A DNA stretch of 64,000 nt from a bacterium (lineage in GTDB: Bacteria; DRYD01): positions 34,079-98,078 of the forward strand of contig JBCNVB010000013.1 in assembly GCA_039630415.1 (NCBI GenBank), given 5' to 3'. The notes beneath the pieces are model-generated. The model made no database searches, was not told the origin of the DNA, and saw only the letters and a list, made by a program, of their open reading frames with translations. Below, one piece after another: positions 2,569-23,077 of the stretch. Within the stretch, counting starts at the first letter, position 1; every line of letters starts with the position of its first letter. Position numbers and translations under genes: made by a program.

Positions 2569-3504
2569 TCAAAGCTCAAAATATCTAAAAGGGTAATTTG
2601 TTTGTATTAGTTTGTAGGGTACTATTTGGGGGAGGCAGAATAGACTATAGGTAAGTTCATAGTATTTGGGCATAGCCATTTTCATTAGATTTCGTACTAG
2701 TGTTTTAGGAATGTTTATTAGAAAAGCTTTTTTTATTAGGGAGTATTTTGTTATGTACTTTTGGAGGAATTCTTGATAAGTTAGGTAGTTTGTATTTACT
2801 GTGTTGAAGATTCCTTGTTGGTTGTTTTGGAGTAGATGTTGTATTATAAGGGGTATTTCTTGGTTATGTATCCAGGGGAAGGGTGAAGTTGGGGTGATAT
2901 TTATTCCTATTGAAAATAGAGCTAGAGGATAGAGCATTTTATGGATATTTGATTTTTTATCTATTACAGCTCCTATTCTTAGAATGATTGATTTTTCTGA
3001 GAGTGGGGAGTTGAGGAGTGTATTTTCCCATTCTAGGATTAGGTTGGATATGAGATTGGGTTGAATAGGTGAAGATTCGTCTACTTTTTCAAGTGGGTTT
3101 TGGTAGTATATTCCTACTGCAGATGCGGAGACTATCTTGTAAATATCAGCTTTTGATTCTATTAAGCTGGACACTATCTTTTGATTTACTGTTACTCTAC
3201 TTTGGTATATTTTTTCCCATTTCTTTTGGGTAGTTAGTCCCAAAATATTTTCTCCTACAAAAATTAGCACTATCCATGTGGATTTTTGTGAATTTAGAAG
3301 TTCTGTAAGTATGCTTTGTAGGTTGTTAAGTGAGTATGAGATAAAGTGTGTATTGGGTATATTGTTTTTTATTTGTTTTCTGGATAGGCAAAAGATTTTG
3401 TTTAGTTGTGCGTTAGGTAGGAGATTGTTTTTTTGTATAAACTGGAAGAGATTGTTACCTATAAGACCGTTATATCCGAATAGAAGGATATTGTATTCTT
3501 TCAT
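2569..3504 (-). CDS. NAD-dependent epimerase family protein (TIGR01777-like), divergent
   Basis: GYNGLIG, SRV, SASAVGIY, WE, LRIGAV and FPWIH motifs. Confidence 0.75.
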   Translation of the reverse strand: MKEYNILLFGYNGLIGNNLFQFIQKNNLLPNAQLNKIFCLSRKQIKNNIPNTHFISYSLNNLQSILTELLNSQKSTWIVLIFVGENILGLTTQKKWEKIYQSRVTVNQKIVSSLIESKADIYKIVSASAVGIYYQNPLEKVDESSPIQPNLISNLILEWENTLLNSPLSEKSIILRIGAVIDKKSNIHKMLYPLALFSIGINITPTSPFPWIHNQEIPLIIQHLLQNNQQGIFNTVNTNYLTYQEFLQKYITKYSLIKKAFLINIPKTLVRNLMKMAMPKYYELTYSLFCLPQIVPYKLIQTNYPFRYFEL

Positions 3505-4649
3505 GCTGTAATGTTGAAGGTTTTGATATTATCTCTGATATTTTGTGCAAGAAGGATGGCTTTTTTTATGTTAATAAGTCCGTTGCCTTGGGAGTATTTG
3601 TCGTATTCTTTACCGTTTTTGTCTTTAAGTTTTATGGTTGATTGGGTGATGATATGTTTTATGGTTTGAGGGGAGGCGTTAGGTAGGATTTGGTATAGTA
3701 GTGCGGCGATACCGCTTACTATGGCTGTTCCTGCGCTGGTGCCTGAGCTTTCTATGTAGTATCCTTTACTCCAGTCTGATGTGATGTGTGGGTCTAGGAT
3801 GCTGGAGGGTACTCTAGCGCCGAGGATTTTTTTAGACGGTGCGATTACATCGGGTTTGTCGAGTTTTTCCAGGGTAGGTGTTGGTCCTCTTGAAGAACCC
3901 ACGTAAATTTCATCGTCTTCGATGGATGGGGTATTTTTGGTATCGCTACCTCCGACGGTGATGACGTTGGGTGCGACGCCTGGGCTATCGATTGTTTCGT
4001 AGGTTTGATCGTTACCAGCTGCTGCAACTACTGTAAATTCTTTAGCTAGTTGGTCGGCTAGTTTGGCAATTTCATCTTCTTCCCAAGATTTGTCGGGGTT
4101 AGTATCAACTCCTAAAGAAATGTTAATCACTTTTACGTTATATTTTTTGCCGTTTTCAATAAGCCATTGAAGTGCTTTGATTAGTTCAGAGACTGTAGTT
4201 ATTCTAAGGATAACGAATTTAACATCTGGAGCTATGCCTTGGTTATATCCTTTTGAGGCTTTTCCTGTACCACCGATTATTGAGGTTACGTAAGTTCCAT
4301 GTCCTAGGATATCTTTTGGATTTTCTTGGGTTGATTCTCCTGAGAAGTCTTTATAGAAGATTATTCTATCTTTGTCTATATCTGGGTGATCATAGATAAT
4401 ACCACTATCTATTACTGCTACGACAACGTCTTTACCAGTTAGATTATTTTCAATCGCTGTTTGTAGATCTATGGCTTGGAGATTAGGATTCAGTATATAG
4501 TACGACAAATCGTTTTCGGAGTGATTTATTTGTACTGTATCCTGTATTTCTGTTGTTTTGTCTGTTTGTATTTTGGGAGTTACTTTTGTTAATGAAGTAT
4601 TGATTAGGGTTTCAGTGTGTTTAATCTTGTTTTTCTGACTTATGTACAT
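3501..4649 (-). CDS. S8 subtilisin-like serine protease (AprX-like), no Sec signal peptide
   Basis: Catalytic triad motifs VAVIDSG, GHGT and SGTS; oxyanion AAAGN; KPDVIAP. The ATG at 4649 is preferred over the ORF-track start at 4718, but the start is uncertain. Confidence 0.88.
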   Translation of the reverse strand: MYISQKNKIKHTETLINTSLTKVTPKIQTDKTTEIQDTVQINHSENDLSYYILNPNLQAIDLQTAIENNLTGKDVVVAVIDSGIIYDHPDIDKDRIIFYKDFSGESTQENPKDILGHGTYVTSIIGGTGKASKGYNQGIAPDVKFVILRITTVSELIKALQWLIENGKKYNVKVINISLGVDTNPDKSWEEDEIAKLADQLAKEFTVVAAAGNDQTYETIDSPGVAPNVITVGGSDTKNTPSIEDDEIYVGSSRGPTPTLEKLDKPDVIAPSKKILGARVPSSILDPHITSDWSKGYYIESSGTSAGTAIVSGIAALLYQILPNASPQTIKHIITQSTIKLKDKNGKEYDKYSQGNGLINIKKAILLAQNIRDNIKTFNITA

Positions 4650-4692
4650 ATTTTTTAGGTTATCGCTGTTTATTTTTATTATGTACGGGTTA

Positions 4693-4709
4693 TGTAAAAA
4701 AAATGTTAA
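4693..4709 (+). promoter_or_regulatory. Direct-repeat box TGTAAA-AAAAA-TGTTAA (11-bp period)
   Basis: Lies between divergent genes. Matches the WalR-type consensus TGTWAH-N5-TGTWAH and recurs at three other sites. Confidence 0.6.
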
Positions 4710-4810
4710 AAAAAGCATTCAGAAATTTTAATTTCGTTTCGGATGGAACATATACATCTGAAGAAAAGCAAAGTAAGTTATAATAGAATAGGCCGTAGGG
4801 GGTGGGTATA

Positions 4811-6055
4811 ATGTCTTTTGATGTTTTCAACTCCATGAACATTATAACAGGTGGAAGAACACAGAACATATATAGGATTAGTATAACGGCGGATATAAGT
4901 GTACCTATTCATCAGGGTTCTACAATATCCGATCATTACCAAGCGGGATTGCTCATAAGGCCTACTGCAGATTTTGATAGTCTAATATCGGCAGTAAGGG
5001 ATTTATCGTTTAACACTTCTTATAATCCAGGACCAATACCTGCAATACCTGAGCCTTCACATTCTACATATCAGGGTATAAATAGTCTGGAACAACTAAC
5101 AAATATGCTTAGAAATTTTGGTGAGAAGTTAAATCAGCTCACAAGTGTTTTTGATAGAACACAGGCAGATAAGATGAGAACGATAAACACCATAAGAAAC
5201 TTGGAGCAACAAAAAGCTAATATAGAAAATAGAATAAACCAACTGAATGCTAGGATACAACAGTTAAACAATCAAGCTAATCAATTAGATAATCAGGCAA
5301 AGCAATTAGATGCTAAAGCTAATAATTTAGAAAAGCAGGCTAATAATTTAGAAAAGAATGCTGCTAAAATAGAGCAGCAGGCAAGGGCTTTGATGTCAAA
5401 TCCCAAAACTGCTGCAAAAGGAGCTAGTTTGATGGCCAAAGCTCAGTCACTAAGAAAAACAGCTGCAACTCTAAAAGCTCAAGCTAAACAATTAAAGCAA
5501 CAAGCAAAACAACTAAGAAATCAAGCTCAGAGATTAAGAGGAGAAGCAAATAGACTACAACAGCAAGTAAATCAACTGCAACAAAGAAAACAAATGGTAG
5601 AGCTAAGATTGAATAACCAAAAGAAATTACTCCAAAAAATAGATAACCACCAACAAAGAATAACTGATTCAATGAGAAAAGTAGTAGAGCATGCAAGACT
5701 TATATATCAAAGAGCTATGGAATTGGTAGGTGCAAGAAATCAAGCCAATCCATTCCAACAACTGATAAACGATATACAATCGATGTTTAACAATAGAGCT
5801 TTAGGAAATGTACCAGGAATGGGCTTTATGCCAGGTATGGGAATGATGCCAGGTATGCCATTTAATCCTGCCCTTGCAATCGCTCAAGCAATCAATAATG
5901 TCTTTGCAATGGGATTCATAGCAGGAATGTCATTTGGTAAAAATAAAGCAATGAGAGATATGATGGGAATGATGGCAGGTATAGGACTTATGATGATGGG
6001 ACCTATGGCTGGTCCTATGCTAGGATTGGGCTTCCTAAGCAGAATGATTAGATAA
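4811..6055 (+). CDS. Long coiled-coil protein with a Gly/Met-rich hydrophobic C-terminus
   Basis: Q/N/K/A heptad repeats over about 200 aa; C-terminal GMMMAGIGLMMMGPMAGPMLGLGFL. SD GGGGGTGG lies before ATG 4811. Confidence 0.8.
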   Translation: MSFDVFNSMNIITGGRTQNIYRISITADISVPIHQGSTISDHYQAGLLIRPTADFDSLISAVRDLSFNTSYNPGPIPAIPEPSHSTYQGINSLEQLTNMLRNFGEKLNQLTSVFDRTQADKMRTINTIRNLEQQKANIENRINQLNARIQQLNNQANQLDNQAKQLDAKANNLEKQANNLEKNAAKIEQQARALMSNPKTAAKGASLMAKAQSLRKTAATLKAQAKQLKQQAKQLRNQAQRLRGEANRLQQQVNQLQQRKQMVELRLNNQKKLLQKIDNHQQRITDSMRKVVEHARLIYQRAMELVGARNQANPFQQLINDIQSMFNNRALGNVPGMGFMPGMGMMPGMPFNPALAIAQAINNVFAMGFIAGMSFGKNKAMRDMMGMMAGIGLMMMGPMAGPMLGLGFLSRMIR

Positions 6056-6078
6056 TACAAATACATAATACAAGTACT

Positions 6079-6672
6079 ATGGAATTGATATTTGTAGTTA
6101 GTTTTGCGGTAATACTTGCAGCTTTTACGGGAATAAGAGCATTCTTACCACTAACTATAGTATCCGTAATGGCTAAATTTAACTTAGTTACAATACCAGC
6201 CTCATCAAAATTCATAAACTTTTTAACTGACGAAAGAGTCATGGCTTTTCTAATAATCGCCACTATCATCGAAATACTATCAGATAAAATTCCATTAATA
6301 GACAATATCCTAGATAGTGTCTATGTAGTTCTAAAACCAGTCATATCGGTTATTAGTGCATATTCTATAACACTTTCTACTGTAGAACCATGGCAAGGTT
6401 TTATTATATCTTTAACACTTGCATTAATATCGAGCTCATCATCTAGTATATCTAAAGCAACGGTTAGGGCAGCATCTACTACATTCTCTGCAGGAACCCT
6501 TAATACTTTAATAAGTTTTATTGAAGATGTCACTGTATTCATAGGTATTATAATCTCCGTGATATTTACGATAATATTGCCTCTGATGGCACTTACGATA
6601 ATACTGCTAATTGCTCTTGGTTTATTCATGATTTTAAAGTTGAGGTATAATCCCAAGTGGAAAACGAGCTAA
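6079..6672 (+). CDS. DUF4126 family membrane protein
   Basis: GIRAFLP, EILSDKIP..DN.LD and S..ED motifs; multiple TM segments. Confidence 0.8.
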   Translation: MELIFVVSFAVILAAFTGIRAFLPLTIVSVMAKFNLVTIPASSKFINFLTDERVMAFLIIATIIEILSDKIPLIDNILDSVYVVLKPVISVISAYSITLSTVEPWQGFIISLTLALISSSSSSISKATVRAASTTFSAGTLNTLISFIEDVTVFIGIIISVIFTIILPLMALTIILLIALGLFMILKLRYNPKWKTS

Positions 6673-12567: not shown

Positions 12568-13868
12568 AATATACCTACTCCGTATATTTCGTTTATATTT
12601 GTTAACCCGGGTGGTATTTTTATTGTTAAATTGGTGTTTTTGGGATTTTCAAAAAATACCCCACTTTTATAGCTTTCTAAATACTTCTCTATTTTGTCTA
12701 ATTTTATATCCAATTTGTTTGAAACTATGCAACCTGAGTTTGTGGTATTTCCATCTATTCCGTCCGTTGCTATTGCAAAAAAAATTATTTCTTTATTAGT
12801 TGGTATATTTTTTATTTCCCTAAGTACTTGTAAAGATAGATGTTGTAATCTTCCTCCATATCCTTCTTTGTCTACTTGTAAACTAGTTTCTCCTCCAAAT
12901 ATGTAGCATATTCCGGTCTTGTTTATATTAGTAAGTATGTTGGATTTGATAAGATTCAATAAATCTTGGTTTTTAAGGTTTAGATGTGAGCATACTGGTA
13001 AAGCATTTATTCCGTTTGTTTGTAATAAATTTTCTACTTGTAAAACTGCAAATGTATTATCAGAGATGATGTAGTGAAATACTTGATCTAAATTTTTATT
13101 TTGTTCCTGGATTTTGTTATATATTTCAAAATTTTCTCTCATCGTTGTATGTATATTGTAGTGATCTATAATAGGTTTGAGGATTTGTGAGATTTCGTAG
13201 ATTTCATCGTTGGAGAATTGCTTGAGAAACGTTATGCCTGAACCTATGGTTGATAAGTCATTTAGAGGTACATCTGAGATGATAAGTGATATAACTTGAC
13301 TATTGGGTATATATTGAAGAAGTTTACCAGACTTTACTCTTGAAAAAAATCTTCTGATCGTATTGATTTGGTAAATGTTTAGGTTTTGATGAAGAATATA
13401 TTTATAGATTTCTATACATAGCTCTGGTTTGATGATTGGGTATTCAAACATACTACTTGCTCCACCACTTATCAAAAATATTATCGTTGTTTTGTTTGAA
13501 TCTATTTGCTTCAAAAGGTCCAAGATTTGGACTGTATTGTTAATTGATTCAACTGATAGGTATGGGTGTGATGAGAAAAGGATTTTATTTGAGTGATTTT
13601 CAAAGGTATATTTTTTATCTGTTACCATGATGCAATCTTGAATGTTTATGTTTTTTTGTTTGGCTTTAGAAATAATAGCATTTAAAAATCTAATAGCTAC
13701 CTTACCTATTGATATTATGTATATCTTATCCCTTATGTTTATTGTATTGCTATTGATTTTTAAGATGTTTGGTTTGTCAAAGTCAATGAGGTTTTGGATT
13801 ACTGTAGTTATGTCTATTTTGTTTGGTAAATAGTTTTGGAGGATGTGTCTAATTTTTTGTATAATCAT
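12564..13868 (-). CDS. Glycerate 2-kinase, DUF4147/MOFRL family
   Basis: [50 protein letters not shown]. Confidence 0.85.
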
Positions 13869-14296
13869 TTGCTTGATTTTGAAAGTAGTTCTTTTTTATG
13901 TCTTAAAAGGAATTTAATTAATTCTTTGGTATACTTATTTAACTCGATTGAATTTATCTGATTTAATTTAAGTAGTTTATACTCGGATATTTCACTATTT
14001 AGTTTGATGTTTGATATGTTATCTACTTTGACTAGGTAATTAAAGAGGATCATGTGTATAGGTTTGTAGAATTCTGGGTCAAAGATGGATTCGAAGAAAG
14101 TCAGGTAGAAACAATTCTTGGGTTGTATATTCAAATTAGTTTCTTCTTTTATTTCTCTGATCAATGCTTTTATTAGAGTTTCACCTTGTTTTATTTTTCC
14201 GCCAGGTATTCCCCACTTACCATTCCACTTATTGGTTCTAACAAATAGGAAGTAATCATCGTATTTTATTAAACCACCTACTGTAACTACTATCAT
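13865..14296 (-). CDS. NUDIX hydrolase
   Basis: Nudix box [25 protein letters not shown]. Confidence 0.9.
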
Positions 14297-15258
14297 CTCA
14301 GATACATCGTATAGTAGAGCACTAATCCTACTATTATCGTAAGTTGTATTAAAACAAATATGGCTATTAGGATTAAGACTTTATTGGTTAGAATTGAATG
14401 TATAGGAAAGTGTTTTGTTGTTATTTGTTCATAATTAGTTTCGCTTTTTAGGATGCTGGCTAGTTTTTTTTCAAATTCTTTAAATGTTTTTATTCTTTCG
14501 TTAGGATTAGAATTTAAAGATTTTTCAAGTAGAGAACTTATTTGTGGGGGTATGGTGGGGTTTACTGAGGATGCTGGAGGGAAGAAGAAGGGATCTTCTC
14601 TAAGATAAGGACTAAGCTTTGTTAAGTATTCATATACTATTGAAGCTACTATGTATATGTATGAATACTCTCCTATGCTTGACTTATCGTCATCCAACAT
14701 TTCTGGAGGTATGTAACCTATTGTACCTACGTATTTTTCTTCTATTCCTTTCTCTGTTACCATCGCAGGTATTTTAGAAATGGCTAAGCTTTGAATCTTT
14801 ACTATTCCTTGTTTATCTATAACAATATTATCCGGCCTAAGGTCTACTAGATGAATTATGTTTCTTTCGTGTAAATTTCTAACTATTTCTAAAAGTTGTA
14901 AAGCTAGTTTTATCGCTTTTATATGATTAGTTTTTGATGAGTGTATTATATCGCTAAGAAGAGTACCGTTTATTTCTTCACATATAACCATTAGATATTG
15001 TTTTTCAATAAAATAGTCTACTATTTTCCCAATTTTTTCGTACACTATTTTAGATAGTGATGAGAGAAATTGATAGAGATTAGATAAGTAGTTTTGGGAT
15101 GTATTGTATTCGGATATACTTATTTGATAAAGAATCCAACTAGAGCCTATAAATCTTATGTCTTCTACTCTGTAAGCTATGTAGTCTACTTCTATTTTGT
15201 AGGTATTAGTTATTTTGTATCTATTGTTTAGGATAGTTCCGGCTAGGATTTTTTGCAT
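14293..15258 (-). CDS. Hanks-type Ser/Thr kinase-like protein with C-terminal TM; probable pseudokinase
   Basis: G..LNNRYKI, DLRPDNI and GTIGYIPPE are present. The Gly loop, the VAIK lysine and DFG are absent. Confidence 0.8.
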
Positions 15259-15314
15259 TGTGGTTTAATCGGGGTGGTTGCGTGTGTAGATTGGTCTGGT
15301 GATGATGAGTGATA

Positions 15315-15388
15315 TGGCTGGCGGGGAAGGATTCGAACCCTCGCCACGGGATCCAAAGTCCCATGTCCTACCACTAGACGACCCGCCA
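15315..15388 (-). tRNA. tRNA-Gln(TTG)
   Basis: Reverse complement TGGCGGG-TC-GTCTAGTGGTAGGAC-A-TGGGA CTTTGGA TCCCG...GAGGGTTCGAATCCTTC-CCCGCCA-G-CCA forms a full cloverleaf with encoded CCA. Confidence 0.96.
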
Positions 15389-15427
15389 ACCTTAGTTATA
15401 TATTACTACATACACTATCGCTATCCT

Positions 15428-15931
15428 TTATTCGCTCTTGCTTTGATCTACTATCTTTTCAATTATATACTCTATCTCAAACCCACTATTTTTTATCTCT
15501 TGGTATATATATTCATGATCTTCTAATGATTGTTTAATGTTTGTAAGATTTTTTACCAATTCAAAAACTTCTACTTCTAGTTGACCAATTTCTTTAAGAT
15601 CTTCCTCTACTTTTTCATTTTGAGATAGCTTATGTTCGATTTTCGTGAGTTTTTCTATTATTTGATTTAATTTATCGTTTATTATCTGAACTTGTGATTC
15701 TATTTTTGGAAGTATGAAATTTTTCGTTTTTGATGATTTTATTGTTATTTGTATTTCTTCTATCCAATTTTTTACTGCTATTATAGCTTCATCTATTTTG
15801 TTCTTATTTACCAGAGTTAGTAATTGATTAAAAAAGGGTGTATTTTCTGGATTTGAAAAATCGTATGAATTTTGACAATTATAACACTTATTACCTTCAA
15901 ATATTTCTAAGCATACAATACATCTATTCAT
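15428..15931 (-). CDS. Hypothetical protein with N-terminal zinc ribbon and helical/coiled-coil body
   Basis: CIVC...CYNC. Confidence 0.65.
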   Translation of the reverse strand: MNRCIVCLEIFEGNKCYNCQNSYDFSNPENTPFFNQLLTLVNKNKIDEAIIAVKNWIEEIQITIKSSKTKNFILPKIESQVQIINDKLNQIIEKLTKIEHKLSQNEKVEEDLKEIGQLEVEVFELVKNLTNIKQSLEDHEYIYQEIKNSGFEIEYIIEKIVDQSKSE

Positions 15932-15950
15932 TGTTTAAAGTACCAAATTA

Positions 15951-16403
15951 CTAACTAATTCTTCCAAATGAAGATTGTATATTGTTGTTATATTGACTAA
16001 TATAGTTTTGTTGTTGGTTAGATAGTATTTTGATGAAATCTAGAATAGTTATAGGACTATCTTTTTGATCACCTTCTTCACCTGTTACAAAGGTAGTTGC
16101 TCTATCTTTTATTATATCTGGTAATCTTGGTATTTCATCCATAACATCGGGTCTATCTCCCATTTCATGTGTTGCTAGTGTTTGTGCAATTACTTTATCT
16201 TGTTGTATATTTATGGATGTATCTCCTGCTTCTAGTGAGGCTAGTGTTTGTACTTTGGGACCATCATGATTTTGTACTATACCTTCTTCCGCGGTTCCAA
16301 CTGTAATCAGAGGATTTTTATCTCCGTATCTTTTTTGATGGCTCTCTATTACATCTTGTAATGTTGGTGGTTTAGATTGAATATTTGAATTTCTTATTTC
16401 CAC
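15951..16403 (-). CDS. Putative multicore graspetide (plesiocin-like, TTxxxxEE) precursor
   Basis: Four xTxxxxEx-G(D) cores. SD AGAGGGGGTG lies before the GTG start. Confidence 0.55.
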   Translation of the reverse strand: MEIRNSNIQSKPPTLQDVIESHQKRYGDKNPLITVGTAEEGIVQNHDGPKVQTLASLEAGDTSINIQQDKVIAQTLATHEMGDRPDVMDEIPRLPDIIKDRATTFVTGEEGDQKDSPITILDFIKILSNQQQNYISQYNNNIQSSFGRIS

Positions 16404-16472
16404 AGAGCTTCACCCCCTCTTTAAGTTATAATGTTCATTTTTGTATTTTAATTCAATATCTTAAGCCAATTT

Positions 16473-16489
16473 TTTACATTTTTTTTACA
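16473..16489 (-). promoter_or_regulatory. Direct-repeat box TGTAAA-AAAAA-TGTAAA upstream of the putative graspetide precursor
   Basis: Plus strand reads TTTACATTTTTTTTACA. It overlaps the holA stop codon. Confidence 0.55.
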
Positions 16490-17546
16490 CAGATAGAATG
16501 GAATAAACTTCTTGAGTGTAACTGCTTCTTCCCATTTTTATCCTTATTTCTGAATCCAAAAGCATGGCTACCAACTTACTTGTTGAATAATTTTTATGCT
16601 TTATTAAATAGTCTAACTTTCTGACGAATTTCATTAACATACTTACCCTGTAATGATTCATATTCAGCTTATTAGCTATATGCTTTATGTTTTCCCCAAC
16701 TTTGTTATATTCATCATGTATTTTTATGATTGAAACTATTTGGGAATATACTAAACCCCATAGCTTTTCAATTTCTCCATTCATCTCTATTTCATCGAGA
16801 TAGTTTTTTAAAAGTTTATACTCTTTTGATATTTTAGGAATATTCTCTATTTCATCTAACTTTGACTCGAATAAAATCTCTAGAAAAAGATTAACTACGT
16901 TAAACATGTTTATTTCGCTGTATTGAGATATATAAAAAGAAATTGCCTCCTGATCTAGTTCATGTTGAATCTTATCTATTCTACTCTCATAGTCTGATAT
17001 TATCTGATCTATTATTTTTTCTGTTAAGATTTCACTTTGTGTTTTGGATAAAACTATTCTAACAAGTTGCGGTATAATAGTTTCAAAAATCTCTGAATTA
17101 CTATCAAAATTGTACTTTTTTATTAAGCATGAAACAAGATGATCTATTTTATCCTCAGATAAATACTGAATTTTATCTATTATTTTGAAGTTTTTCTGTA
17201 TATATTCTGCAACTTTAGGATCTTTAATTGAATTTAAAGTCGGAATAGTAATTATTAAATTACAGCTCTTAGTCCTATCTAACATATCTATTACCTTTTT
17301 GGAATTATTTTTTTCAACCAAGGAGATAAAATTGTCCAATACAAATACCAGATTCTTATGAAACAGGGTTTGCTGACAAAGAATTTCTTCAAGCTGCTTT
17401 AAACTGTGGTTTTGACAATCAACTTTCTTTATAACATCTGCTTTGATAGAATTTACTGTTGAAAAACTCTCTTGTAAAAGTTTTTGTAAAAATTCTCGGT
17501 CTAACTCCGTGATCACAAAATCTCTAGTTAAAATAACATACCTCAT
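16485..17546 (-). CDS. holA: DNA polymerase III delta subunit-like protein, divergent
   Basis: Q.TLF...LVFV, IANKLNMNHYRV and L.D.EIRIKMG resemble the HolA pattern; size fits. Confidence 0.65.
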   Translation of the reverse strand: MRYVILTRDFVITELDREFLQKLLQESFSTVNSIKADVIKKVDCQNHSLKQLEEILCQQTLFHKNLVFVLDNFISLVEKNNSKKVIDMLDRTKSCNLIITIPTLNSIKDPKVAEYIQKNFKIIDKIQYLSEDKIDHLVSCLIKKYNFDSNSEIFETIIPQLVRIVLSKTQSEILTEKIIDQIISDYESRIDKIQHELDQEAISFYISQYSEINMFNVVNLFLEILFESKLDEIENIPKISKEYKLLKNYLDEIEMNGEIEKLWGLVYSQIVSIIKIHDEYNKVGENIKHIANKLNMNHYRVSMLMKFVRKLDYLIKHKNYSTSKLVAMLLDSEIRIKMGRSSYTQEVYSILSV

Positions 17547-18523
17547 ATACGAATTATCAATTGATTTAAAATACAGAAAATCTTTGTGTGCAAATTCTCA
17601 AACATTGAAGCTACCGATCTAAAACAGTTTATACAATCACTACCTGACTTTTCTAGCTCATAATATAAATCCTCTATTAGTGTTGGAGATAAACCTGCAA
17701 TTAGTTCACTTATCAGATTGTATAAAATAATTTTCACATACTCTTTTACCTTCAGATTAATTAAACTACTCTCAAGCAATGTTTGTATAGAGTATTGCTG
17801 TAACTCTGTATACTTTGGGAAAATATTTTTCTTGGATAACTCAATGGCTACTAGTTCCCTTATTTTTCTCATTCCAAAACTAATCGCCAACTTTCTTGAA
17901 AAACCATACTTATTTCTCAACCAAACAATAGTATTTACCTCTCCTATGTAAAAGTTAAAAATCTTGGGATACAGAAAGTAAAAGAAATCCCCGAAATCTA
18001 CTAATTCAAAGTTATACTTCCAATATCCAAAAACATCCCTCAAAAAATTCTTTTGGTTCCTAAAGTAAGGGGATCTAGGATCAATGAAATTTATTAACCT
18101 GATAGTATTAACATTTTTCAACAAATAGTATAAATTTTCAATATCCAAAAAATACGGAATATCGTACTTGATATAGTCTTCATAGACTGAAATTTCATAC
18201 ACCTTTTCAAGGTTGAAAGAAAAGATATATTCCATAATCATGTAAAATATTTCATATTCTTGTATAAGGTTCATATGAACAATCCTTTTAATCAGATAAC
18301 TATTTTTGTTAAAGTTGATGCTCATTGTATCTGGATAATCCAGTATTCTATTAGTTTGCTTTGCTATTAAGTACTGCAAGAAAGAAAAAGGACCAAAATA
18401 ACATATATTTCCATCCCTATCTAGAGTTACATAACAAGGAAAGATAAATTTCCTTATTATCTGCTTTTTATCAACAAATAGGAAAAATATGTTCTGATTA
18501 CCTATTTTGATATAGAGATTCAT
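17543..18523 (-). CDS. Degenerate MreB-like actin-fold protein
   Basis: Collinear similarity to MreB motifs (see findings); the phosphate-loop aspartates are lost. Confidence 0.45.
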   Translation of the reverse strand: MNLYIKIGNQNIFFLFVDKKQIIRKFIFPCYVTLDRDGNICYFGPFSFLQYLIAKQTNRILDYPDTMSINFNKNSYLIKRIVHMNLIQEYEIFYMIMEYIFSFNLEKVYEISVYEDYIKYDIPYFLDIENLYYLLKNVNTIRLINFIDPRSPYFRNQKNFLRDVFGYWKYNFELVDFGDFFYFLYPKIFNFYIGEVNTIVWLRNKYGFSRKLAISFGMRKIRELVAIELSKKNIFPKYTELQQYSIQTLLESSLINLKVKEYVKIILYNLISELIAGLSPTLIEDLYYELEKSGSDCINCFRSVASMFENLHTKIFCILNQLIIRI

Positions 18524-19619
18524 GATATTTAAGGAATTCTAATGCTGAAATAGCACATCCTTTTAATTTTGTTGTTCCAGCCCTACCAACTAAAACTATA
18601 TATGGAGCTTTTCTTCCACACCTACAACCAAAACTAATAAAACCTACATCAGAAGAAATAACATTTGAGATCGTATAACTACTAGCGTAAGGAGTCATAA
18701 AAGAAAGTAAACCTATCTCTTCATAGCTATTGAATCCCCTTGTTAAAGGGTTAAAAGTCCTTACTCTTGAATATCTAGGTATATGCTTATTATCATACTC
18801 ACACTCTACGTATGGTATTCCATGTTCTACCATACCATATAAATCTCTTACCTGATTTATTCCTAAATACTCTTTCACTAGTTTCTTGAATTCAGTTACG
18901 GATATTTCTTGCTTATGTGTCTTCCATCCTCCACCTGGTAAAACTACTCCACAAAAATTGAACTTGAGATTTCTTTTTTGAAGTTCTTGAATAGTATAGT
19001 AAATATAAGCTGGAAAGCCAAGAATTCTCAATCCTAAACCACTATCCTGGAATTCTTGAAGCTTCTTAATTACTCCCTCAAGATCAAAGAAAAAGCTATC
19101 CCCTTTCTTTTTCAAAGCAAAAAATTTATCCCTCATTTTTGGTGCAAGTTCAGATAGTAAAACGTCAGAAAATGCAGTCCCTAAACTCAAATCCTCATAC
19201 GTGAAAAACAAATAATTATACTCATTCTCTAAATCAGTTAATCCATAATCCTGATAAACATTGAAAACTATCTTCTTTATTCTATTAAGGGTTATTTTAT
19301 CCAAAACCATTCTTGACGGTTTTTGGGTAGTACCCGACGAGAAAATCTCAACTTCAATATCCGAAATCAAAAAATCCGCTTCATACACAAACTCCTTTAA
19401 AACATAGACACTAATAAACAACCTATAATCCCATAAATCTTCTATGCTACTTATGCTTTGTATATCTTTTGTGAATGATTTAGCCTTTAGTAAACCTCTG
19501 TAGAAACTAGACCTTGAAATTTGATTAGATATGCATTCCTTCATACAATCAACAAACAAACTATCATTAAGGTAATCATAATCAAATGGGTTAGAATCAA
19601 TCAACCTGTCTACAAGCAT
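18498..19619 (-). CDS. LuxE-like acyl-protein synthetase
   Basis: SSGTT, GFPAY, GGGWK, DLYGMVEH, S.DVG, GRAG...KGC. Confidence 0.85.
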   Translation of the reverse strand: MLVDRLIDSNPFDYDYLNDSLFVDCMKECISNQISRSSFYRGLLKAKSFTKDIQSISSIEDLWDYRLFISVYVLKEFVYEADFLISDIEVEIFSSGTTQKPSRMVLDKITLNRIKKIVFNVYQDYGLTDLENEYNYLFFTYEDLSLGTAFSDVLLSELAPKMRDKFFALKKKGDSFFFDLEGVIKKLQEFQDSGLGLRILGFPAYIYYTIQELQKRNLKFNFCGVVLPGGGWKTHKQEISVTEFKKLVKEYLGINQVRDLYGMVEHGIPYVECEYDNKHIPRYSRVRTFNPLTRGFNSYEEIGLLSFMTPYASSYTISNVISSDVGFISFGCRCGRKAPYIVLVGRAGTTKLKGCAISALEFLKYHESLYQNR

Positions 19620-19622
19620 ATT

Positions 19623-20633
19623 TTATTTTCTTTTCTTTTTTTTCTTCTCGTTAGATTCCTGCTTTTTATTTGGATCATAATTTTGTGCTTCTTCTATTTT
19701 ACTCTTAGCAACCAAGCTATCTGGTAAAATTTTGAGTATTTCTTCATAGCATGAAATAGCCTTTTGTTTATCATTTTTTTTGTACAGAAAAATATCCCCC
19801 ATTCTCACTAAACTTATAAATCCCTGCCCTAATAGATTTGGATCGTACTTGTATGCTAAATCATACGTTTCTACAGCTTTATCTATTTCATTAACCTTTT
19901 CATAAGCATATGCAAGTTGGTAAATCATATCAGGATACTTTATATCGATATAATTTTTAAGCTTGGATATAGTTTGATTGTAATTACCCAGGGAATTCTG
20001 AATTTTACCAAAATACTCAAGAGCAATCGGATCATAACTCTTAACATTAAAGGCTCTGTTTAGCATTGAAATAGCTCTTTCATTTAACTTTTTTTCATAA
20101 TAGGCAATTCCCAATCCACTGTAAATACACGCCAAAGTAACTGGAAAAAATAGGCTCTTTCTAAAAGTATTTATAGCTTCATCCAAATAAGCCCCCCCAT
20201 TATTCGTAGAAAAATACAAAAATATATTCGAAAAACCCACTAGCGCAGTTAAATAATGATAATCCTTACTCGTTTCTATTACCTGATCTTTATTCGTAGC
20301 ATTATATCTTTGAACAAAGGAGATATAGGTACTATCAATGTTATTGATTGTTTCCTGAAGTTTATCCAACTGAAAAGAAGAAGCTAAATAAAAAATATAA
20401 GCTGTAGTATTGTCAATGTCCTGGGTTATAATACTATAACAGTACTTCATACATTCTTCAAAATTTTTCGAATAATACAGCTCAAATATTTTATTAGTCT
20501 TATATATTTCTTGCTGTACTTTTTGATCTAATTCACTAGCTCTCAATTGACTTGCTTCTGGAAATATTAAAATATAGAATGTAAAAAAAATCAAGAGAAT
20601 ATACTTAGTGCTTATTTTAAATAGCTTTAACAT
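19623..20633 (-). CDS. Exported TPR-repeat protein
   Basis: N-terminal signal/TM segment and several TPR motifs (LGIAYY...A...L.RA). Confidence 0.8.
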   Translation of the reverse strand: MLKLFKISTKYILLIFFTFYILIFPEASQLRASELDQKVQQEIYKTNKIFELYYSKNFEECMKYCYSIITQDIDNTTAYIFYLASSFQLDKLQETINNIDSTYISFVQRYNATNKDQVIETSKDYHYLTALVGFSNIFLYFSTNNGGAYLDEAINTFRKSLFFPVTLACIYSGLGIAYYEKKLNERAISMLNRAFNVKSYDPIALEYFGKIQNSLGNYNQTISKLKNYIDIKYPDMIYQLAYAYEKVNEIDKAVETYDLAYKYDPNLLGQGFISLVRMGDIFLYKKNDKQKAISCYEEILKILPDSLVAKSKIEEAQNYDPNKKQESNEKKKKKRK

Positions 20634-20671
20634 GCTTCACCCCCGAAGTTAAGCTCGTAATTCGAACAAAA

Positions 20672-21937
20672 TTAAAGATTTCCATATATATATGGTTTGA
20701 TGTAAGAAATTATTTGCCTTTTCCTTTGTATTTCATCATGTATATCCGAAAATATCGCTGAAACTGATTGCCTTTTTAAAAGAGTATACGAAGCTAACTC
20801 AGTCATAAATACATCGTATAACCTTCTGTTATACTCTCCTAAACTGCTTTTTCTAATCCTTCTTAATCTAAAATCTATTAATTCATCTAAAATTTGATAG
20901 GACAGAAAACCAGAGGATATATCATCTTGAAGAGACTGTCTAAGCAAATTTTTCTCAATATTGAGTGCAAAGAAGTAAAGAGCAATAAAAATAATAAACA
21001 TTACTGTGATTTGTATTGGAAACCACAAACATGCTATGTTGCCAAAATACATAACACCAACTGAGGCAACAAAGTTCCAAATAAAATGTGCTAAAACAGA
21101 AAGAAAATACCCCACAACTATATAGACAATCTTCAGGAAGAAATTAGGTGTAATGGTAGCTAATCCTACTGCAAAACCTGAAAAAACTGACATTAAGGGA
21201 TGACTCATAAATCCCAGTATCCATCTAGCAAGAACAAGAAAGAAAAATCCCTGCATAGCTCCACCCTGTATTGTAAAATTAGCACCATATAACAAATCTT
21301 CTACAATTTTGAACCCCAACGAAGAACAAAAAATATATACTATCCCATCAAGTGGACTGTTAAAAACAACTCTAAAGAAAATTATTATTACAGGTATAAT
21401 AAGTAACTTAAAGATTTCTTCAAAAACAGGAGCACTTATAATACTTGTTAGTATATCACCAACTCTTTCTCCAAATAGAGCACTAAAAATGTACTGATTA
21501 ATTTCATTGGCAAAGAGAGAAAATATGGTTGCCCCAAGAGCACCCCAAATAAACGAAAATACAACTAAACTCCAAGGCTCTTTTTCATATATATCTATTT
21601 GCCTTATTAATATTAAAAGTATGATACTTACAGTTATAGAAATACCTGCCGCTAATAAACCTAATACTAAACCCAAAAAACCACCACTACTATACCCACG
21701 CAACATCAAAAGACTAAAACACATACCACTTATTAAAAAAATAAAAGAAAAAAGCACACACACTATTAGTAACCTTGTAATAAAAGTTTGCTTACTTGAT
21801 AAGCTGTTTATCTCTCGTAATACATCGGACGAAGGAGGAGGTGCAATTTTAGCCTCACTCGATCCTAATAAACTACCACAGTTAGGACAAAAAACATACT
21901 CATTTTTTACATAACCCCCGCAATTATAACATTTCAT
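20672..21937 (-). CDS. PrsW-family intramembrane glutamic protease with N-terminal zinc ribbon
   Basis: CYNC..FCPNCG, D.YEKEP, APVFEEIFK, GF..VEDLLY, H..WN. Confidence 0.88.
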   Translation of the reverse strand: MKCYNCGGYVKNEYVFCPNCGSLLGSSEAKIAPPPSSDVLREINSLSSKQTFITRLLIVCVLFSFIFLISGMCFSLLMLRGYSSGGFLGLVLGLLAAGISITVSIILLILIRQIDIYEKEPWSLVVFSFIWGALGATIFSLFANEINQYIFSALFGERVGDILTSIISAPVFEEIFKLLIIPVIIIFFRVVFNSPLDGIVYIFCSSLGFKIVEDLLYGANFTIQGGAMQGFFFLVLARWILGFMSHPLMSVFSGFAVGLATITPNFFLKIVYIVVGYFLSVLAHFIWNFVASVGVMYFGNIACLWFPIQITVMFIIFIALYFFALNIEKNLLRQSLQDDISSGFLSYQILDELIDFRLRRIRKSSLGEYNRRLYDVFMTELASYTLLKRQSVSAIFSDIHDEIQRKRQIISYIKPYIYGNL

Positions 21938-21940
21938 ACT

Positions 21941-23077
21941 CTACTCGGTAAATAGTATCTTCCTTCTTCTGGTTAAAGGAGGTAAATCTTCTATATCAAT
22001 ACTGAAAGTAGGTTTTGTATCTGAAAATCCAAATAATGAATCTTTTTTACTGTCTACTTTAGTTGGAGTCTCTGGAAATTCAGTAGCTATCAAAATTACC
22101 TTTACTTCATCTTTTAGATTTTCATCTAAAGTAGCTCCAAAAATTATTCTAGCTTCTGGATCAACTGCTTGATGAATTATGTTAGAAGCCTTTTGTATCT
22201 CGGTTAGTGTTAAATCACTTCCTCCAATAACGTTAAAAAGTACTCTTTTGGCTCCTTCTACCTTCATTTCAAGTAAGGGACTTTCTACTGCTTTTAATGC
22301 TGCTTCTTCAGCTCTATTTACTCCTTTAGATGTACCAATACCCATCCAGCAACTACCAGAATCCTTTAATATCGACTGAATATCTGCAAAATCTATATTG
22401 ATTAACCCTGGCTTTAAAATTATTTCAGTAATTCCTACTACTCCATGCTTTATTACAGTATCTGCTAGTTTGAAAGAATCTATTAAGGTAGTATTTTCTT
22501 CAGCTATGGAGAATAACTTATCATTAGGGATAATTACCATCGCATCTAAGTTTGGTTTGAGATTATTAATACCTTCTTCCGCTATTATTTTTCGTATTTT
22601 ACCTTCAAAAGAGAAGGGTTTGGTTATGATAGCTACTGTAAGTATTCCCATTTCTTTAGATACTGCTGCGATTATGGGACTTGCACCGGTACCCGTTCCT
22701 CCTCCCATACCGGCAGTTATAAATACCATATCCGCACCACTTATCACTTTTCTTATTTCTTCTATACTTTCTTCTGCAGCTTTTCTACCTAGTTCAGTAT
22801 CTGAACCTGCTCCTAGACCCTTCGTAGTATTTTTACCTATGTGTAGTTTATATATATTTTCGGGTAAATTTAGAAGAGCTTGAGCATCTGTATTTATAGC
22901 AATAAAATCGACACCCTTTATATTGTCTTGTACCAATCTACTTACAGCGTTACATCCTCCCCCTCCTACTCCTATTACCTTTATATTTGTAAATCTTATA
23001 TCTTCGGGGTTTATTTTCTTTCTTTCAATTTTTTCCCCTTTTTCGAAGGATTTATTCTCTATTCTTTCTTTATCCAT
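21941..23077 (-). CDS. ftsZ: Cell division protein FtsZ
   Basis: GVGGGGCNAV, NTD, GMGGGTGTG, PFSFEG, NIDFAD. Confidence 0.98.
   Translation of the reverse strand: MDKERIENKSFEKGEKIERKKINPEDIRFTNIKVIGVGGGGCNAVSRLVQDNIKGVDFIAINTDAQALLNLPENIYKLHIGKNTTKGLGAGSDTELGRKAAEESIEEIRKVISGADMVFITAGMGGGTGTGASPIIAAVSKEMGILTVAIITKPFSFEGKIRKIIAEEGINNLKPNLDAMVIIPNDKLFSIAEENTTLIDSFKLADTVIKHGVVGITEIILKPGLINIDFADIQSILKDSGSCWMGIGTSKGVNRAEEAALKAVESPLLEMKVEGAKRVLFNVIGGSDLTLTEIQKASNIIHQAVDPEARIIFGATLDENLKDEVKVILIATEFPETPTKVDSKKDSLFGFSDTKPTFSIDIEDLPPLTRRRKILFTE

Follow-up and report, generated by a model that had tools for sequence, protein, structure and literature searches.

The question raised by this locus is whether a small minus-strand gene encodes the precursor of a graspetide and, with no ATP-grasp gene in the window (the whole 64,000-nucleotide stretch of DNA that was analysed), where a ligase acting on it would be encoded. 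A sequence-only reading had taken the gene for an orphan precursor with four spaced, plesiocin-type cores between positions 16068 and 16307. All four are present as it described them, and the segment corresponds exactly to residues 33 to 112 of the encoded 150-residue protein.

The putative precursor gene, its cores and its relatives

The putative precursor gene (positions 15951 to 16403, minus strand), delineated from its ORF, its syntenic orthologues and their alignment, encodes the four cores and, behind them, a conserved C-terminal helix. Its GTG start codon (16401 to 16403) lies six bases downstream of a Shine-Dalgarno sequence, GAGGGGGTGA, read from the sequence at 16410 to 16419 of the same strand. 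Specifically, core 1 (ITVGTAEEG, residues 33 to 41, positions 16281 to 16307) retains Thr2, Glu7, and Glu8 and has Ile at position 1, cores 2 (QTLASLEAGD, residues 52 to 61, 16221 to 16250) and 3 (QTLATHEMGD, residues 74 to 83, 16155 to 16184) retain only Thr2 and Glu7, and core 4 (TTFVTGEEGD, residues 103 to 112, 16068 to 16097) is a full TTxxxxEE, all on the minus strand. The full motif is present in one core of four and the Thr2/Glu7 pair in all four, as the sequence-only reading had noted; Gly6 of canonical cores is replaced by Ala, Leu, or His in cores 1 to 3. The pattern TxxxxExG occurs four times in the protein; among 200,000 shuffled versions, at least two copies were found in 100 and at least three in none, a figure that is optimistic because the motif was defined post hoc, on data already seen. 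The source genome (G000; 1.40 Mb, 32% G+C, 89% complete) was also searched for other ORFs with TxxxxE repeats, and among its 9,585 stop-to-stop frames of at least 40 residues the precursor was the sole match to any of three definitions of the core.

Pfam offered no family for the window precursor, and none of the seven members of the precursor family described below matched a relevant Pfam or NCBIfam family. The sole NCBIfam match of the window precursor, to FlhF (E value of 0.0014; 17.8 bits versus a cut-off of 585), was rejected as compositional. When 5.8 billion proteins were searched with a word index, the precursor alone was returned, and a full HMMER search of 1.84 billion representatives found it together with eight matches, all of them repeat proteins of 900 to 3,200 residues. 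The latter were judged to have arisen by chance: their K/R-x-YG-x-x-NP-x-LT units match a single stretch of the precursor, with scores summed over the repeats. This stretch, KRYGDKNPLITV (residues 15 to 26, positions 16325 to 16360), is reminiscent of the units of giant surface-type repeat proteins. The segment GDKNPLI of the window precursor looks like an insertion, and the residues KRY ahead of core 1 are shared with the precursors of the related genomes G003 and G008. A promoter and terminator scan of positions 15200 to 16800 was uninformative: it gave six promoter-like sites where 9.2 would be expected, none of them within the 81-bp gap ahead of the precursor gene. A search for sequencing runs containing the sequence listed no RNA run, its single match being a DNA run that may be the source.

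The host is a Candidatus Calescibacterium species; its lineage has been described from springs of about 80°C (PMC4791363, PMC11696919). The order to which the source genome belongs is small and isolated, comprising 11 species genomes; a bacterial 16S search of the source genome gave no match. Syntenic orthologues of the precursor gene are present in related Candidatus Calescibacterium genomes. In all, the precursor was found in five of the 11 genomes, in four by profile search and in G004 by synteny, and in one copy each on the metagenome contigs L127 and L146. The ORFs of the congeners G003 and G005 match over residues 99 to 149, i.e., the C-terminal third, and are syntenic, with a holA-like gene on one side and a gene for a Zn-ribbon protein on the other; the window precursor is 36 to 37% identical to its congeners. 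Its core 4 aligns with the final TTxAVGEEG core of all orthologues. The cores are TTLAVGEEGE (twice), STAMVGEEGE, and TTLAVGEEGG in G003; TTLAVGEEGG, TTTAVGEEGG, and one decayed copy in G005; TTLAVGEEGG, STFAVGEEGD, FTIFARELGE, and TTFAVGEEGD in G008, which belongs to a sister genus; and TTLAVGEEGE, VTIIEKEEGT, and STMAVGEEGS in L127. The precursor of G004 has the inner-only cores ITLSVGEAD and FTHAVGEDG. The Thr and Glu positions are conserved in the orthologues, most of which carry canonical TTLAVGEEG cores, with two to four canonical TTxAVGEEG cores per protein in G003, G005, G008, L127, and L146.

The pattern TT[LTF]AVGEEG was derived from the three closer family members; the five-member alignment contained no sufficiently conserved stretch. 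Scanned against one genome per species, it yielded 110 related stretches in Myxococcota, Planctomycetota, Cyanobacteria/Vampirovibrionia, Proteobacteria, Actinomycetota, and other phyla. The TTxAVGEEG ORFs of these other phyla are multi-core, with up to 17 repeats, and several start with LFIEDL-like leaders (e.g., RLFIEELEHR, ELFITDL, and SLFIPDL). A metagenome scan with the window protein gave 353 pattern matches, none of which was confirmed, and a second metagenome scan yielded 77 loci. Judged by these comparisons, the TTxAVGEEG motif is, in many phyla, a marker of group 2 (plesiocin-type) graspetide precursors, mostly with a PsnB-like ATP-grasp ligase encoded beside them. Inner-only cores were also seen amid full ones in other phyla, e.g., VTYALGEN and VTLAIPES.

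In plesiocin, the inner ring (Thr32-Glu37) is reported to form before the outer one (Thr31-Glu38) (bioRxiv 10.1101/2021.03.09.434688). The sequence-only reading had noted that the outer-ring positions Thr1 and Glu8 tend to be lost together in the window cores, and the same holds for the wider family. When Thr/Ser at position 1 was tabulated against an acidic residue at position 8 for the 18 regex-defined cores of five family precursors, 10 cores had both, one had Thr/Ser only, two had the acidic residue only, and five had neither (Fisher P = 0.013); the sole core with Thr/Ser only is a register-shifted duplicate. Outside the lineage, the corresponding counts for 123 distinct cores with the skeleton xT.[AGSV].GEx, taken from 148 loci, were 103, 2, 8, and 10 (P = 1.7e-8). 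Both P values overstate the covariation, since neither the cores of one precursor nor those of its relatives are independent of each other. In both sets, the outer Glu is almost never lost where the outer Thr/Ser stays. Such joint loss is what a pair of ring partners would predict, and it lends sequence-level support to a ring-within-a-ring topology in many uncharacterised precursors.

The ATP-grasp ligase and its linkage to the precursor gene

The source genome contains two ATP-grasp-like matches, on contigs C3 and C18; the window is part of contig C5, which confirms that no such ligase is encoded in it. The gene on C3 (G000:C3:74354-75298), encoding 314 residues, is the genome's one RimK-superfamily ATP-grasp gene. 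When its product was compared by sequence with solved structures, PsnB (7DRM; bioRxiv 10.1101/2021.03.09.434688) was the best match over the full length (E value of 1.5e-19), followed by a next match at 6.7e-7; CdnC reached 1.3e-4. The AlphaFold2 model of the ligase (pLDDT of 91) likewise matched the PsnB chains best in Foldseek (E value of about 1e-24), ahead of PruB (3.5e-18), CdnC (2.4e-17), and RimK and ArgX (both about 4e-17). PsnB is the closest solved relative by sequence and by predicted fold, and the enzyme appears to be PsnB-like. The search of the genome for a PsnB-like ligase that the sequence-only reading had called for was successful in this respect.

For graspetide ligases in general, Arg72, Arg213, and a D(F/W)R loop (PsnB numbering) are reported to be conserved, and Lys172 to bind ATP. 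The equivalents of PsnB Arg72, Lys172, Arg213, Asp233, and Arg235, i.e., R77, K174, R210, D233, and R235 of the G000 ligase, are invariant in an alignment of 27 ligases comprising the G000 enzyme, five orthologues, and 21 enzymes from TTxAVGEEG loci, without PsnB itself; the DFR loop of PsnB reads DYR in the G000 ligase. Arg101, reported to be conserved only in group 2a enzymes and to bind the outer-ring Glu, falls in a gap of the pairwise HMMER alignment between PsnB and the G000 ligase; in the 27-sequence alignment, from which PsnB is absent, the Arg of a conserved YRNYY motif shares a column with the R-E motif of other ligases. The region of the leader-binding helix of PsnB is four to five residues shorter in the ligases of the Calescibacterium lineage, which fits a different recognition element. 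Among NCBIfam models, MptN matched the ligase best (71.9 bits versus a cut-off of 350). The graspetide-maturase models TIGR04184, TIGR04185, TIGR04187, and TIGR04192 scored 35.4, 54.9, 60.6, and 43.2 bits, below their cut-offs of 475, 425, 350, and 230, respectively, the sub-threshold matches including SAV_5884 (60.6 bits) and MvdC (54.9 bits). None of these four models is known to have been built for group 2. Homologues of the G000 ligase are encoded within 6 kb of a TTxAVGEEG ORF in 59 of the 79 genome loci kept; near such ORFs in metagenomes, they were found at 34 of 77 loci, including 21 of the 36 loci of at least 4 kb.

In G000, the precursor gene (C5) and the ligase gene (C3) are unlinked. 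The epithet "orphan" stands for the window and fails for the genome. Among relatives, the ligase gene adjoins the orthologous precursor gene in four independent arrangements, which come from two genomes of the group and from metagenome contigs of two distinct types. G008 and L146 have the order precursor, Zn-ribbon gene, ligase, the Zn-ribbon stop codon overlapping the ligase start codon in G008; L122 and L123 share the arrangement of G008. L127 has tRNA-Gln, ligase, precursor, and Zn-ribbon gene, followed by holA on the opposite strand, and in G004 the ligase gene is convergent with the Zn-ribbon/precursor pair. The ligases of G004 (L032:1486-2399) and L127 (L127:3237-4183) are nearly identical and both flanked by tRNA-Gln and holA; between the two, the precursor/Zn-ribbon cassette is inverted, and their precursors differ strongly. 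In G000, G003, G005, and G006, the ligase gene lies elsewhere, downstream of a SAM-methyltransferase gene. Its other neighbour in G000 is an asparagine-synthase-type amidotransferase gene (L001:1959-3458 on contig C3) that, in this genome only, overlaps the ligase stop codon; G005 and G006 have other genes at this position. As the ligase is unlinked in G000, a different substrate is possible.

Across the order, a full ligase gene is present in six of the 11 genomes, and the Zn-ribbon gene in the same five as the precursor gene. All five genomes with a precursor have both the ligase and the Zn-ribbon gene; in no genome is a ligase missing where a precursor is present. The four genomes in which none of the three genes was found are 71 to 87% complete. 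G007 carries a 77-residue C-terminal ligase fragment with an internal TAA (G007:C1:44360-44584), neither a precursor nor a Zn-ribbon gene being found in this genome, and may represent a decayed system.

The C-terminal helix and the Zn-ribbon protein

PsnB binds the LFIEDL element of the PsnA2 leader, while the "AIGEE" region of the TTxxxxEE core of plesiocin occupies the active site (bioRxiv 10.1101/2021.03.09.434688). No conserved N-terminal element or LFIEDL-type leader was found among the seven aligned precursors of the present family, as the sequence-only reading had already remarked for the window protein, and the precursor of G003 has only nine residues ahead of its first core. The helix that this reading had pointed out behind the cores proved to be conserved: the C-terminal segment PITILDFIKIL...SFGR (residues 117 to 148, positions 15960 to 16055, minus strand) belongs to a Pro-initiated hydrophobic or amphipathic helix that ends all seven proteins, with Pro117, Gly147, and the hydrophobic helix pattern kept in each and an FG(R/K) motif in most. 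Typical group 2 precursors extend a median of 10 residues beyond the last core. Of 125 complete ORFs in the wider family, 11 have an LFIxDL-like motif ahead of the cores and one, L108, has it behind them; other leader types were seen by eye. In L108, a contig of an uncultured betaproteobacterium, the precursor ORF (about 5746 to 6381) has SLFIPDL ahead of its cores and LFIQDL at its extreme C terminus, a counterpart in nature of the construct with two leaders engineered in PMC13003496. The precursor of L112 (Vampirovibrionales) also ends in a hydrophobic helix.

The absence of a conserved N-terminal element and the retention of the C-terminal helix in all seven members fit the earlier suggestion of a follower peptide, and the segment is a candidate recognition helix of this kind. 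A graspetide synthetase is reported still to modify its precursor, in multi-core constructs as well, when the leader is moved to the C terminus (PMC13003496), which makes a natural follower mechanistically credible. Overall, we propose the follower role tentatively, at somewhat less than even confidence. Complex predictions with two ligase copies and precursor residues 98 to 150, run with alignments, scored 0.00 twice and are evidence neither way. Our literature search returned no report of a natural follower-type graspetide, and the more than 20,000 predicted clusters of PMC13097080, of which only part of the account was available, may include relatives. Of the literature on graspetides and follower peptides, one account concerns a dispensable four-residue tail in myxomiditides and another imiditides.

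The gene that starts 19 bases past the precursor stop codon (positions 15428 to 15931, minus strand) encodes a 167-residue protein that is a candidate partner and adjoins the precursor in every genome or contig with a precursor. It contains four invariant Cys residues, and its AlphaFold2 model (pLDDT of 87) features a Zn ribbon and a helical bundle. The family comprises 11 clusters in 5.8 billion proteins. Searches of Pfam and NCBIfam gave only sub-threshold coiled-coil matches, weakly SMC-like, the ESM Atlas gave no usable match, and Foldseek found nothing in the PDB at E values of 0.001 or below, its best matches being FAT-domain four-helix bundles (E values of 0.3 to 1), a weak lead. By tblastn, the protein was detected in Calescibacterium-type loci only (three of 79 genome and four of 77 metagenome loci). 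Note that the orthologue in G003 (L004:1003-1478) has an in-frame TGA and only a 78-residue C-terminal ORF, i.e., it is either broken or affected by a sequencing error; G003 nevertheless has the most canonical precursor. Partner-dependent graspetide synthesis was first reported in 2026 (PMC13097080), and the papers found to mention graspetides together with a zinc ribbon concern pamtides/pimtides.

Proposed pathway, alternatives and known systems

Both computational tests named together with the graspetide interpretation, the search for a ligase in the genome and for Thr/Glu conservation in orthologues, came out in its favour. From sequence comparison, it is probable that the ORF at 15951 to 16403 is a divergent plesiocin-type (group 2) graspetide precursor, most likely working in trans with the PsnB-like ligase. 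In each core, the ligase encoded on contig C3 would phosphorylate the side chain of Glu7, whereupon attack by Thr2 would close an inner ring through an omega-ester bond; core 4 is the only one with both Thr1 and Glu8, and there a second, outer ring would follow. Up to five ester bonds would result, giving three monocyclic hairpins and one bicyclic hairpin. Cores 1 to 3 may be poor substrates because they lack Gly6, whose amide contacts Arg72 in PsnB. As the precursor has no N-terminal leader, its amphipathic C-terminal helix probably recruits the ligase as a follower, and the co-transcribed Zn-ribbon/helical protein may participate. By analogy with plesiocin, protease inhibition would be the likeliest activity of the stapled hairpins; this is the weakest step of the proposal, and we consider it doubtful.

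The locus itself offers no linked protease or exporter. A co-regulated S8 protease had been suggested as a target; its gene (3501 to 4718, minus strand) lies about 11 kb away across plus-strand genes, and the link was dropped as unsupported. The usual peptidase-containing export transporters are marked by a C39 peptidase domain, and none was found in the 89%-complete genome. It is conceivable, if on balance unlikely, that the modified product stays at full length inside the cell as a heat-stable stapled protein acting with the Zn-ribbon protein, e.g., as a regulator of the cell's own proteases or as a structural element. In line with this alternative, the search for export genes found neither a transporter nor a leader peptidase nor a C39 domain, the genome encodes three S8 subtilases, the locus is set amid housekeeping genes (the holA-like gene, tRNA-Gln, and the FtsZ region) in small genomes of 1.3 to 1.9 Mb, and the springs inhabited by the lineage are hot (PMC4791363, PMC11696919). 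On the other hand, the cores and spacers diverge fast, with pairwise identities of 25 to 55% among five precursors, which is more typical of molecules with outside targets, and plesiocin is described as inhibiting foreign proteases (PMC10125368).

An improbable alternative is that the window precursor is a decaying relic, unmodified or put to another purpose after the ligase gene moved and three of four cores lost the outer-ring residues and Gly6. The canonical TTLAVGEEG cores of its only distantly identical congeners, set against the degenerate cores 1 to 3, and the single-protein search that returned the precursor alone are points in its favour. Yet the reading frame is intact behind a strong ribosome-binding site, Thr2 and Glu7 survive in every core, the C-terminal helix and its FGR motif are conserved, no invariant residue is missing from the ligase, and the Zn-ribbon gene, too, is intact. 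Moreover, inner-only cores occur amid full ones in G004, G008, L146, and other phyla, and so resemble a tolerated condition more than decay. It is highly improbable that the protein is disordered and unmodified, its repeats serving as short linear binding motifs, and that the ATP-grasp enzyme acts on some other substrate as a glutamate ligase of the RimK/MptN type. In favour of this view, MptN is the best NCBIfam match, no graspetide model passes its cut-off, and of the six genomes with a full-length ligase gene four have it unlinked; against it, the ligase adjoins the precursor in four independent arrangements, PsnB ranks ahead of RimK and ArgX by sequence and fold, and homologous ligases stand beside TTxAVGEEG-repeat ORFs across phyla.

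The preferred reading, a group 2 precursor modified in trans, resembles plesiocin (PsnA2/PsnB of Plesiocystis pacifica) in its repeated TTxxxxEE cores, four per precursor, in the TTLAVGEE sequence of the orthologues, which is close to the "AIGEE" core region of PsnA2, and in a ligase nearest to PsnB that keeps Arg72, Lys172, Arg213, and the D(F/Y)R loop. It differs in that a conserved C-terminal helix takes the place of the N-terminal LFIEDL leader, three of four window cores lack Gly6 and the full outer pair, the ligase is encoded on another contig and has a shorter leader-binding helix region, and an extra Zn-ribbon gene is present. Chryseoviridin (CdnA3/CdnC) is multi-core as well, and a single ATP-grasp ligase is described as making both single and bicyclic omega-ester rings (PMC10125368), whereas it belongs to another graspetide group with another core motif, and CdnC is far less similar to the ligase than is PsnB. 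Engineered fuscimiditide (ThfA1/ThfB) has its recognition element C-terminal to one or several cores, at an approximately twofold loss in rate, but is man-made, "unnatural" in its authors' word, and belongs to a different group with a 67-residue leader (PMC13003496); here, unlike there, such a layout would be native to a small natural precursor family. Rosaritide (MirC) and graspetide group 36 also have a strictly co-occurring extra protein beside the ligase (PMC13097080); the rosaritide partner, however, is of the PPIase type, whereas the Zn-ribbon/helical protein has no family match, and group 36 is reported from Thermoprotei only.

Unusual features of the present system are a C-terminal helix instead of an N-terminal leader, a lineage-specific Zn-ribbon partner gene, an unlinked ligase, and cores that are mostly inner-ring-only. 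Graspetide mining tools seek a precursor beside its ligase and expect an N-terminal leader; with neither at hand, the locus would be missed on both counts. If the proposal holds, small genomes can encode a precursor apart from its ligase, and some "orphan" ligases and precursors may be pairs; and the lineage would provide a small, tractable three-gene system from a hyperthermophile with a heat-stable PsnB-type ligase that may accept inner-ring-only cores, which is useful for peptide stapling. Furthermore, nature would already have arrived at the layout with a C-terminal leader that was engineered in 2026 (PMC13003496). A more far-reaching scenario, possible but less likely to be true in full, is that Calescibacterota have a natural follower-directed graspetide pathway in which the helix recruits the PsnB-like ligase via or together with the Zn-ribbon/four-helix-bundle partner, the cassette inverts and relocates independently of the ligase, and the cores diversify and shed the outer ring, yielding mixed mono- and bicyclic hairpins that work at about 80°C.

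As to the remaining neighbours, all on the minus strand, the genes directly upstream of the precursor gene (16485 to 19619) encode the holA-like protein (DNA_pol3_delta_C, below cut-off), a 326-residue ORF product that matches no family, and an acyl-protein synthetase of the LuxE type (85 bits); G003, G004, and G005 have the first two upstream of the precursor gene as well. They are followed by genes for a TPR protein, a 421-residue PrsW-like intramembrane protease, and FtsZ in a row (19623 to 23077). On the other side, a NUDIX hydrolase gene and one for a Ser/Thr protein kinase whose C-terminal tail is hydrophobic overlap each other (13865 to 15258), and a tRNA-Gln gene (15315 to 15388) is located between this pair and the Zn-ribbon gene; tRNA-Gln likewise adjoins the ligase gene in G004 and L127.
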